From: Amphiscolops sp. MND2022
Taxonomy: Eukaryota
Direction: 5' to 3'
Assembly: GCA_964187785.1 (NCBI GenBank)
Contig: OZ076409.1
Coordinates: 63,986,001 to 64,046,000 of the forward strand
Length of the DNA: 60,000 nucleotides
The stretch's first letter is position 1. Each line of letters opens with the position of its first letter. Under the pieces are notes generated by a model. The model saw only the letters and a program-made list of their open reading frames with translations. It had not been told where the DNA came from and searched no databases. Both the position numbers and the translations under genes were made by a program. Positions 45,467-49,831 of this stretch are shown one piece after another.

Positions 45467-48400
45467 ATGTCTTCAAGCACAGGTTGGTCTGGTTTTCGTA
45501 TATTGAACTAGCTTAGCTTGATCAGGGCTAAATTCGTTCACAATAAGCTTCCTGTTTCCACTAATAAGCGCGTGACAGCACATTTTGTTCAAATTCTCAA
45601 GTACTTCCGGAAGGTTTCTAATGCGGTAGAATGGATTCTTTTCGAGGAAGCATACCGCCAAACTTTATCTCTTTTTATTTAGAGAATCAAACAACTGAAG
45701 TTGCCGATGTACCAGTCAGACCTGCTACCACTACTTCAGTGGCTAATCCACCGACCGAAGCTGGACCACAAATCCAAAATCCGAGTGTGTCCCAAGAGTT
45801 GTCTCGAAGCCGTACTGATGATATCACCTCTACTCACAGTGCTGACAGTGACCCAGATGTAACATCATATGCTGAATCTATGCTCCAACGGATGCAACAG
45901 ACACAACGCATCATTACACACGAAGAGAAACATCCTGCGTCTGCCCTGCTGGAGAGCCAAGAACAAGCCAATGACCCTCCTGAATTAGTATTGACGACTG
46001 CTGAGAACCGAAGGTCGAGTACGCCCATCCAGTCTGATGAGGAGGAAGTCCAAGAAGCTGACTTGTCAGCTTTAGAGTCTGCCTTGAAGGTCATCGAGGC
46101 CTCTGAGTCTCAGCTACCTGAATTGAGAAACAAGAACAATTCAGACCAAGTGGATGCAAGTGGTATCCAATCCAGGACTGACGAAGATAACGCCTCGTCA
46201 ATTTGTGATGTACCCGCTCTCCCAGGAGGTGACCCCAAAGTACGATTCGCCGTGGGATTGGGTGATGAAGAAGAGTCAACTGGAGAGTCAAGTCGACTGG
46301 TCCCGGTAGAGTTGTATGGACGTCCTCCTTTCGGTCCTGAGTCTGGAACTGAATGTGAAGGGGATACCGGTTCCGAAGGGCAGCTTTTGGAATCAGGCAA
46401 AACATGGACCGCTGGCGGGAGTTCACATCCAGACAAACTCCCAGATCTCTCGGGTCGTAGTAGAGCCATTCTAAAGGAGTACTTCGAGGAGGCTTCTCCT
46501 ATTAGACTTCCCGTTGGGCATACTACCGTAGCCTTCACAGAGCCTCACCTCCTGCGTACCCTCACGGATGAGACCCTCCGCATGTCCTTCAGTACTATGG
46601 AAAGAATGGTACTCGATGCTGTCCGAGGTTCCCCGACCGCTCTCCCGTCACCTACTTCTCACTTTCAACTAAAGAGGAGAGCACAAACCCCTGGACCTGG
46701 GACCCAGAGTGACTCTGAGACGGAGAGTGACCCACAAGGAACAGTTTCAGATCAGCTTGGGTCGAGTAGCGACGACACTGGCAATGCTTCCTTCTATGAG
46801 GAAACCGATAGCGCCACAGAGATGGACCTGATAACGAAGTCCTTTAAGCAGACTCCAGCGCAACCTCTAGACAGGGAGATTCAAACGGGCGCGCCAGATA
46901 ATCAGCAGCAAACAGGACTAGAGATGGAAGGGCCCAGTAGTCAAGATACCACATTACACGAGATGCGTGAGCAGGCTCAGAAGGACCTAGGAGAGGGACA
47001 TTCTAAATTGAAGAAGAAAAAGGGCAACAAGAAACTTTCCAGGAGAGGGGTGCCCATGAGGGAAGAGTTCTTCTGTAAAATAGGGTGGACGAGATCGTTC
47101 ATTTCCGGGCCGGCTGATCCTTTGAATAATCCACATATGGTCTGGTGCCATATTTGCAAAAAGAACTTCTCTATCAAATCAAAGGGGCCCTATGAGATCT
47201 TGAGGCATCATCGGACAGATCGCCACTTAAGACGTGACCAAAGGTGGCGTTACGAACATTTGCGTAGTGTCGACCCCGTTAGTGGCAAAGTGCAACATCG
47301 AGTCAGAGGTGCTAACGGCAAAATCTTGACAAAAATTGAACTGGCCAATCAACTGCCCAAGTTCATCAATGCTGAAAAAGTGGACATCGGGGAGAGGTTC
47401 CCCTTTTACGAGGATTTCATACGAGGGACTACCACAGCCTTGGTCACACAGGAAGCAAGGGTCAAGACCCAACTTTGCCTGGTTGGGGATTTCATGAAGA
47501 CTCTGGGTGACTCGTTTGTCTTGAGGAACCTGTGGGCCAGAATGGGGGCCTTCACCAACCATCAAGCTACTGTGTGTGATTTTGACTGGGGCGAAGAACG
47601 TATAAGTGTAAGTATATTTCCGGTGACCTGTCCACTAGGCCGTGTATTTCCTTCATAGAATTTCTGTTTTTCTTACAGGCAATCTTCCAGCATTTCTTCA
47701 TGAGTGCCCTGAGCGACCTCGCTGAGCACGTCGCCGCCGAACAATGCTTCGCCATTGAATTCGAGGCTGCTGGAGTTTACCGCTATATGACAGTCAGGTT
47801 CTGGAAGGGTCATGAGCTCTGCCGGGTCTTCATTTGCAGAAGTTCTCTTCCCGCAACTGACATAACAGGCGAACTAGGCTCCCTGGCTCGATTCTTGTCT
47901 GCGGTTTCAACCCAACCAGATGTAGTGGCATGTTCCGGATGTCACGTTGACTTTGCCAAGACGATTGATCAATCAGATTACTTCCCACAAGGGGTCCAGA
48001 GTTGTTTCCGTTTTGAGCAGTTGTCCTTACCCACCTTAATGCACAAATCCAAATACTCCGTCTTTGGTCAAATAGACTTCTTCTCCGTGCTCCAGGCCCT
48101 GATGGTGTCCTTAGGCGGCTCTCTGAGAAGGATGGGCAATGCGGAGTCCAGAGCTCACAAAAGTAAGTACTCCACTTCATCTTTCATTTGGTGGTCGGGG
48201 GTCGGTTAACTTAGGTACGGTAGGGAACAATTCCCAACAGCAAAATTGGTTTTAACAGGCGGTGACCAATTGCAAGCTTGACATCCAGACGCTCCCGGTC
48301 CTCTGTACGGAATTGGCCAAGGAGTGGAAATCCATACTCCGCTATTTGACTGAGCATGCCCCTATACAAGGAGGTCAAGGAGTCTGCAGCAGGGTTAGGT

Positions 48401-49831
48401 TTGATTTCATTCCTTTACTTGTATAATCAAATAGTACCACAGGGAGGTTCTTGGGCTCCCCCCCCCTTTCATTTACCGGGCGTTTGGCGAAAACTAACGT
48501 ATGCATCTTGTTTAAGGTACCGAGTTTCGAGTGGTCCCTGATCTGTGATGAGTTTTTCGTGGTCAAGTTGGAGTTCTTCAACAGGCTTGTGAGCGATTGT
48601 AAGTTGTTTACTTTTAGGGTAGTTGTTCAGGGATCTACCCTACTTTAGGCTTTGATTTGTGTTTCCAGACGTGGCTAGTTTTCCGGTGAACCTCCAACAC
48701 AGGCGTGATTCCTCTTTCTATTTATGCGGGGAAGTCTGCCAGTTCTTAAGCCTACTTTGTTCTCGTGCCTATACTCCTGACACTGTCCCCCTTGCGAATG
48801 CCTGGTTCCTGTTGTTACGATTCCAGACCAGTGAGGCTACCTTCCTGGATGGGGAAGAGTATCTGGTTCGTCTGAGGCTCTCTCATAAGGTATCAGCGGC
48901 CAGCAAAGCCAAAGCGGAAGGGATGCATTTCGGCAAAAAATCAGAGCGCCCAGCAATCCTGGCAACCACAGAGACCGTAAAATCCGATTTCGTTAAAGAC
49001 AGCCAGCATTACATCCAGTATCTGGTCAATGAGGTTCTTCGACAAACTGGACTGACTACCAACATCGTGAAGGGAATGGCCGCCTTTGACCCTTTTATTT
49101 TGTTCAAGCGGCCTATGGAAGTAGCTCTGCGGCACTTCGACATCCTGTACAGTACTTTCTCCCTTCGCTCTTGGGTGTCTAATGCCAACGAGTCCTTGTG
49201 TCGGGATCAGTATATGCAATTACTTGACCACCTGCGTACAACCTATGACCCTAATTTCGACATATCTAGCGTCTCTGCTGACCTAATTGAGTTCCTGTCC
49301 GAGCTGGAATTCCTCCGTAATCGTAGCTGCTTATTCTATTTGTTCAAGTTGTGTTGCTTGTGTGCTACGTCTGTTAGCCCCACGTATCCTGATGTCACTT
49401 TTGGGACAGTTTCCACTTCTGGACGTCATAGCAGATTGACAGACGTCATTCTTCCCAGTCAAAGTTACGTAGCTAACGTGCGTGACGCAGTTGCTTTCTG
49501 CAGTGATGATGGGAATCTGGCCAAGTTCATTGACTTCTCTTCTTCTTTCGGGCGTTCTGCATTTGCTCCCGATAATGATCCTTGGACGTACGTGGACAAT
49601 TTCGGGCGTTCGAAGATTTATAAGTCATTGTTGGCTTCCTACCGGGCAGCTCTTTCCACTCCTCAAAAATCTCTGGTCCGTGGTGCGCCAGAAGATCAAT
49701 GTTCCGTAGCTGATATGTCTGCTGTGAAAGCCCCTACTAGCACTAAGCGAAGGAAAATGGAACGTCGCGCTTCTCGCGCCTCTTCGTCATCCACTGCTGG
49801 AGTCAGTGAGCCTGGTTCATCTAAAGACTAA
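45467..49831 (+). CDS. Antisense spliced gene: BED-type zinc finger plus degenerate hAT-transposase-like body (exons 45467-45482, 45683-47607, 47679-48162, 48259-48393, 48517-48598, 48669-49831)
   Basis: Five GT-AG introns (GTAAGT donors at 47608, 48163, 48599; ACTAAC branch site at ~48493). Four join long ORFs in phase; one frameshift is needed near 48125. Motifs VWCHICKKNFSI..EILRHHRTDRH, CFAIEFE, EWKSILRYL, AFDP, LFKLCCL, RHSRLTD. Confidence 0.8.

Follow-up and report, generated by a model that had tools for sequence, protein, structure and literature searches.

An intron-containing antisense accessory gene, probably derived from a hAT transposase, in a Ty3/Gypsy retrotransposon clade of Amphiscolops

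Several Gypsy retrotransposons, i.e., Retand, Grande and RIRE2 of plants and the fungal Boty elements, carry an open reading frame (ORF) that is antisense and lies between pol and the 3' long terminal repeat (LTR) (PMC7264820; PMC11963269). The function and origin of such ORFs are described as unknown in these sources, and a search for antisense or spliced transcripts is urged in the review. Retand-type ORFs encode TRP28/Transposase_28 or SMC-like domains, which, according to the same review, show no similarity to other transposable elements, and a DNA-binding role in the nucleus has been predicted for them; gene23 of Grande has its own upstream promoter (PMC7264820; PMC11963269). Here, we describe an intron-containing antisense gene enclosed in an LTR retrotransposon of 16.4 kb, located on the minus strand of a 60,000-nt stretch of the Amphiscolops sp. 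MND2022 genome (1.07 Gb; assembly GCA_964187785.1, contig OZ076409.1, positions 63,986,001 to 64,046,000; hereafter, the window). As judged from the sequence, we regard the gene itself as firmly supported, its descent from hAT as probable and its role as a regulator as a candidate one. To the complete model, in which a captured hAT gene is kept as an accessory DNA-binding regulator of its own Gypsy clade, we assign a probability of roughly 0.55.

The antisense gene resembles the ORFs of Retand, Grande, RIRE2 and Boty in position, orientation and retention in most copies. In contrast to Retand-type ORFs, it has five conserved introns, a coding capacity of ~1,270 aa, a C2H2 finger and, probably, a whole hAT scaffold, and no Pfam match to TRP28/Transposase_28 was found in the exons of the window or in 33 relatives. 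The original prediction, made from the window alone, spoke of an undescribed type of retrotransposon. Given the plant and fungal precedents (PMC7264820; PMC11963269), this is too strong for the architecture, although the literature outside Repbase, Dfam, subscription journals and supplements yielded no account of an animal Gypsy element whose antisense gene is spliced or hAT-like. The giant Burro elements of planarians are likewise animal Gypsy elements with extra coding capacity, but their additional domains (BIR, BCL2, env and others) reside in the sense polyprotein, and the accessible part of the report mentions no antisense gene (PMC6431247). Among the accessory domains of other LTR elements treated in the available portions of PMC13547354 and PMC6431247, none is of the antisense-gene kind. 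The plant mobile domain (PMD) occurs in both Gypsy elements and Mutator-like elements (MULEs) and is not a transposase core (PMC5418596; PMC8616336). It offers a parallel in being shared between an extra ORF of Gypsy and DNA transposons, but it is a passenger that MULEs captured from host genes rather than a transposase core within an LTR element (PMC5418596).

The six plus-strand exons with canonical splice sites that had been predicted were confirmed in the window:

45467-45482, plus strand: exon 1, ATG and 13 nt
45683-47607, plus strand: exon 2, acidic low-complexity region, basic run and C2H2 finger, followed by a conserved domain
47679-48162, plus strand: exon 3, a region that aligns with the initial strands of the hAT catalytic domain, with a frameshift near 48,125 in the window copy
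48259-48393, plus strand: exon 4, 135 nt
48517-48598, plus strand: exon 5, 82 nt
48669-49831, plus strand: exon 6, helical domain colinear with Hermes residues 367-582, followed by a tail that is basic and of low complexity

In an alignment of 35 rows (the window and 34 copies, after L001 had been dropped as self), each of the eight GT/AG dinucleotides of introns 2-5 is kept in 33-35 rows. Exon lengths are kept as well (486 nt for exon 3 in 30/35 rows, 135 nt for exon 4 in 33/35 and 82 nt for exon 5 in 34/35), whereas intron lengths vary, and in the four most distant copies of this alignment the introns are 39-55% identical versus 59-74% for the exons. The donor context of intron 1 recurs in all seven long loci examined. 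Among more distant loci, 14 of 15 were used (L054 was excluded as frameshifted), and 52 of the 54 introns present are GT-AG; the exceptions are an artefact of coordinate placement and a mutated acceptor. The product of ~1,270 aa proposed earlier is incorrect for the window copy itself: since its exon 3 measures 484 nt, the spliced frame stops at codon 816. With an exon 3 of 486 nt, the exon lengths of the window yield 1,268 aa, i.e., an unshifted copy, and 10 of 12 subfamily copies are free of stops when spliced from the finger region in exon 2 into exon 6. Splicing of the genomic RNA does not remove introns that lie on the antisense strand, and these, hence, survive reverse transcription; those of the antisense gene, facing away from this RNA, most likely persist for that reason. 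L050, L055 and, by eye, also L054, three related copies of clade B (see below), cleanly lack intron 5, and protein P0010 likewise runs uninterrupted from exon 5 into exon 6. Such a precise loss suggests reverse transcription of a spliced antisense mRNA, followed by recombination back. This would constitute indirect evidence that splicing occurs.

A first look at the genome yielded 7,480 candidates for exon 6, of which 107 were scored; ~17 of the 108 rows listed carry an internal stop. Annotation pipelines overlook a spliced gene of 1,270 aa that, as these first-look counts suggest, lies at thousands of genomic places. All 35 loci followed outwards, the window included, continue from the gene into integrase. 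When exon 6 is only 26-64% identical, integrase still lies behind the gene on the opposite strand (15/15 loci), and in the three of these loci with enough DNA reverse transcriptase (RT) is present at 77-79%. The antisense ORF lies between pol and the 3' LTR in 20/20 loci picked by integrase and in 49/49 picked by the gene. Of the 41 DNA matches to 49000-51900, 35 start exactly where the antisense gene stops (49809-49833), and each of the 20 junctions examined among these carries exon 6 with ~50-76% identity. The predicted distance of 232 bp between the antisense stop and the pol stop (49832-50063) was also found. For exon 6, four pairs have a dN/dS, the ratio of nonsynonymous to synonymous substitution rates, of 0.03-0.06, and the closest pair (dS 0.03) has 0.21; dS is saturated in five pairs. 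At the sequence level, these ratios show purifying selection on the antisense gene.

Nested insertions of DNA transposons are common in repeat-rich genomes, and a passively carried insertion could have placed the gene here. The original prediction had named two outcomes that would speak for such an insertion, absence from most family members or occurrence elsewhere with terminal inverted repeats (TIRs) or a target-site duplication of its own. Neither was encountered: the gene has no TIRs or 8-bp target-site duplication around it, exact inverted matches between the flanks do not exceed 10 nt, the flanks consist of retrotransposon sequence in all loci, and no free-standing copy of the gene was found among 49 loci. 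The gene occupies the same position even in subfamilies with saturated dS, and its dN/dS is that of a selected accessory gene. Nested insertion is therefore refuted by family-wide presence and selection and retains hardly any probability, and the gene is, almost certainly, an integral, selected and family-wide antisense accessory gene of the Gypsy clade.

The gene and pol do not share one history throughout. In three copies, dS is 0.27-0.53 for integrase versus 1.6 or saturated for exon 6. Trees of 25 loci (L052 was dropped because of short integrase cover) agree between exon 6 and integrase on one deep split (100/100), which separates clades A and B, but conflict within clade A. Pairs with an identical integrase segment place exon 6 on different branches. 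The contrast in dS, together with this agreement and conflict, indicates that the gene predates the deep split and is swapped against pol as a module. As the DNA matches start at the antisense stop and branches conflict, the exchange between pol and the cassette apparently takes place in the 232-bp gap.

What the protein derives from is less certain than its retention. Three weak methods independently point to hAT, with the domains in the right order; one of the signals is a weak structural match of the helical domain of exon 6, colinear with residues 367-582 of Hermes. The protein shares an N-terminal zinc finger and a colinear order of motifs with hAT transposases (Hermes and the THAP12/ZMYM1/FAM200-type). 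It differs in lacking TIRs, in the apparent loss of the DDE and CxxH motifs, in an acidic extension of ~430 aa, in its class I carrier and in the lack of a significant profile match. The last point weighs against a hAT origin, as do several other results: Pfam yielded no hAT match in the frames of the window and 33 relatives, a word-indexed search of longer proteins, with exon 6 as the query, was negative (0 of 7,997 scored), sequence-profile searches of PDB gave nothing significant, local and global hhalign against a THAP12/ZMYM1-type profile did not reach significance, and Foldseek searches of the PDB and viral sets and VIA gave no match, which does not exclude a fold. A structure model built from an alignment of 11 sequences had a pLDDT (predicted local distance difference test) of 33. 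The genome does contain ordinary hAT transposase frames (L036-L043; 419-697 aa, Ac-type and THAP12-type), but HMM profiles matched none of these eight open frames, and no donor family was found; a search of the genome for PF14291 gave no match anywhere, controls included. The proposed derivation stands as probable, from weak signals set against profile and Foldseek searches that did not reach significance.

A capture of a host zinc-finger gene, or a new fold, would account for these negative searches, with the hAT signals being chance or generic helix matches. The relatives counted (487 and 190) are also compatible with such an origin, as all were unnamed proteins where looked up. These include 10 looked up among the 487 from the profile search and the 120 relatives listed for the finger region, all of them from ENA. 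However, chance matches would hardly make three methods choose hAT with the domains in order, and we consider a non-hAT origin unlikely. Derivation from a hAT transposase thus remains the probable origin as far as sequence comparison can tell. Two of the relatives, P0099 and P0059, have best matches of only 31% and 41% identity in this genome, and the family is therefore probably present in other organisms.

Several features read from the protein sequence held up. The N-terminus is acidic and of low complexity (18% D+E and 30% S/T/P in the first 430 aa), and the basic run KLKKKKGNKK, similar to a nuclear localization signal (NLS), is present. The predicted BED-like C2H2 finger has its CxxC...H...H pattern conserved, and an Atlas lead of 0.83 points towards the BED-type, but it has no match to zf-BED in Pfam; across 37 sequences, C59 and H85 never vary, while conservation of C62 and H79 is 90% or higher. 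In an approximate alignment of 12 subfamily copies, neither the DDE triad nor the CxxH motif was found at the aligned positions, the former being replaced by S/T, S/G/C and L/F, and the PDVTFG segment, earlier considered among the motifs, is not placed at the third catalytic residue. The reported absence of D/D/E residues is correct for sites two and three, but one invariant glutamate at the end of the first strand lies near the first catalytic aspartate in 12/12 copies. If the protein is of hAT origin, it is very probably catalytically dead. A nuclease or transposase that is still active, its catalytic set having shifted, and that mobilises or recombines the cassette would fit this glutamate and the cassette's frequent exchange at its 3' edge, but, with no conserved acidic residue at the second and third sites, no TIRs and no free-standing copy in 49 loci, it is highly improbable.

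Candidate targets for a DNA-binding protein are present in the element, where GGCC pairs spaced by ten bases occur in the LTR:

43069-43479: five GG[AC]C-N6-G[GT]CC palindromes in the 3' LTR, starting at 43069, 43215, 43273, 43408 and 43466, mirrored at 57493-57903
45104-45117: GGCC-N6-GGCC palindrome in the head-to-head gap
50313-50326: GGCC-N6-GGCC palindrome within the integrase tail, which clade A copies conserve at the DNA level

The window contains ten GGCC-N6-GGCC sites, all inside the element, versus 0.06 expected; with relaxed half-sites there are 12 in the element and none elsewhere in the window. In the integrase tail, the half-site columns are more conserved than their neighbours, both at 21 clade A loci (0.96 vs. 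0.89) and at 10 clade B loci (1.00 vs. 0.85), with eight columns in each case. GGCC-N6-GGCC was found at 27/40 clade A loci but only 1/10 clade B loci, whereas GGAC-N5-GTCC is present at 10/10 clade B loci (26 sites) and 0/40 clade A loci. Upstream of two clade B loci, GGCC-N6-GGCC is missing and the DNA contains GGAC-N5-GTCC or its inner form GACC-N3-GGTC, five each, with 0.01 expected. Thus, two protein clades are paired with two different candidate DNA sites. Several considerations limit this argument: the palindromes were found post hoc, and the two clades amount to one comparison; most of the clade A counts represent one inherited site; an N8 spacer gives a similar tally in clade A; and the upstream stretch of L035 has only two sites. 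GG[AC]C-N8-G[GT]CC itself occurs 71 times in 38/40 clade A loci and may be a second motif or inherited coding sequence.

The BED fingers of Hermes bind subterminal repeats (PMC10368747), and the VANC proteins of VANDAL MULEs diverge between families together with their targets (PMC5735166). Like VANC, the antisense protein is an accessory protein encoded by the element, in which family-specific short motifs recur (PMC5735166); here, this recurrence was recognized post hoc and in one clade comparison. VANC is encoded by a DNA transposon of plants, and both binding and hypomethylation have been demonstrated for it (PMC5735166), whereas for the antisense protein both would be predictions from sequence motifs, and Pfam, the only means by which homology to VANC was looked for, revealed none. 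The clade-specific palindromes favour a presumed role as a regulator or anti-silencing factor, but the odds that the antisense protein binds them appear evenly balanced.

The palindromes may instead be bound by a host factor, ORF-X (the neighbouring accessory ORF) or the integrase tail, with the hAT-derived protein acting through protein contacts or non-specific chromatin binding. ORF-X and the LTR share a 3' module and ORF-X has a CxxC pair, and the related half-site in both clades could be that of a host factor. Nevertheless, the spacer changes from six to five between the clades, in step with clade-specific finger sequences, and a change in spacing within one genome is not expected of a host factor, which is disfavoured for this reason. 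We regard this possibility as fairly unlikely. A cofactor of integration or nuclear import, which would tether the pre-integration complex via cDNA ends or integrase, is conceivable as well. Transposases naturally bind element ends, the protein has basic NLS-like runs, and the same role has been suggested for Retand ORF4 (PMC7264820). However, the palindromes are internal rather than at the LTR tips, and the gene is freely exchanged against near-identical integrases, contrary to a tight partnership with integrase; such a role is quite unlikely.

In the model of a captured regulator, an ancestor of the Gypsy clade would have acquired a hAT-family transposase gene (THAP12/ZMYM1/FAM200-like) in antisense orientation behind pol and retained it as an accessory gene. 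Its transcription would start from the 874-bp gap that separates it head-to-head from ORF-X, and the transcript would be spliced. The cut-and-paste chemistry would have been lost, while the zinc finger and the transposase scaffold may bind DNA sequence-specifically as a dimer, the acidic N-terminus of ~430 aa acting as an effector in activation or anti-silencing. The likely targets would be the clade-specific palindromes that recur in LTRs, head-to-head gap and integrase tail, and each clade may thus activate or shield its own copies in a VANC-like manner. If so, an antisense ORF would have a traceable, probable origin in the transposase of the other class of mobile elements, and, if binding is true, the protein would represent an equivalent, in an animal retrotransposon, of VANC-type self-regulation and would exemplify the domestication of one class of transposon by another. 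A broader reading can be advanced only tentatively: a class I element would have domesticated a whole class II (hAT) gene, introns included, as a trans-regulator, protein and palindrome would have co-diverged between the clades, and the cassette of antisense gene, ORF-X and LTR would be shuffled against gag-pol. Such a retrovirus-like complex genome may explain much of the LTR load of this animal lineage. Acoel genomes were reported to be rich in LTR elements (PMC9911081).

The surrounding retrotransposon has the following parts:

56389-58325, minus strand: 5' LTR, 1,937 bp, ends TGTC...GACA, the final ~570 bp being the coding start of gag
41965-43901, minus strand: 3' LTR, in which ORF-X ends and the gag start is repeated in truncated form
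58326-58330, minus strand: target-site duplication AAAAT, 5' side
41960-41964, minus strand: target-site duplication AAAAT, 3' side
56371-56388, minus strand: putative primer-binding site, starting with TGG, abutting the LTR and within the gag frame
55241-56956, minus strand: gag, with DUF1759 and a CCHC knuckle; its ATG lies within the 5' LTR
53860-54726, minus strand: aspartic protease frame, with a weak dUTPase match (E 0.066)
51918-53525, minus strand: RT-RNase H frame, split from integrase by a stop in the window copy
50064-51914, minus strand: integrase (H2C2, rve) with a long variable tail
49832-50063, no strand: tail-to-tail gap, 232 bp, AT-rich, the apparent exchange point between pol and antisense cassette
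44593-45466, no strand: head-to-head gap between ORF-X and antisense gene, 874 bp, a candidate divergent promoter
43813-44592, minus strand: ORF-X, 259 aa, with an acidic N-terminus and one CxxC, ending within the 3' LTR

The LTRs, 1,937 bp each, are 99.4% identical. The order of domains in Pfam (gag, protease, RT-RNase H, integrase) and the presence of Ty3-G Gag-Pol among the best PDB matches of RT (E ~1e-27 to 1e-26) assign the element to Ty3/Gypsy. The start of gag presumably resembles that of acoel flatworm elements. About 190 gag codons lie inside the LTR (56389-56956; counterpart 41965-42532), which places the primer-binding site within the gag frame. In locus L044, RT and integrase form a single frame of 1,127 aa; as a stop splits them in the window, this copy is defective and would depend on others. 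Rfam gave no match within the element. In the window copy, no polypurine tract was found before the 3' LTR, where the 24 nt (43902-43925) are pyrimidine-rich, code for ORF-X and resemble a splice acceptor. In the tail-to-tail gap, three AATAAA motifs on the sense strand just past pol could terminate a shorter gag-pol RNA that stops ahead of the antisense gene; AATAAA is missing from the antisense side of this gap, though TGTA repeats are present there. The head-to-head gap contains invariant blocks of 16-18 nt in the six sequences compared. ORF-X has no Pfam match and is the second accessory gene to have gone unannotated; its N-terminal 66-74 aa are 51-60% identical in L031-L033.

Other repeats also occur in the window. 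At 3698-12103, a second LTR element has repeats of 1,931 bp (99.6% identical), gag and protease frames and a weak Macro-domain match (E 0.0065); no RT-bearing frame of at least 120 aa was seen in it, and it may be non-autonomous. Eight diverged copies of a unit of ~185 bp are located at 15388-16779, and a decayed LTR element with repeats of ~83% identity lies at 22948-28745 and retains an RNase H remnant at 25691-26125.
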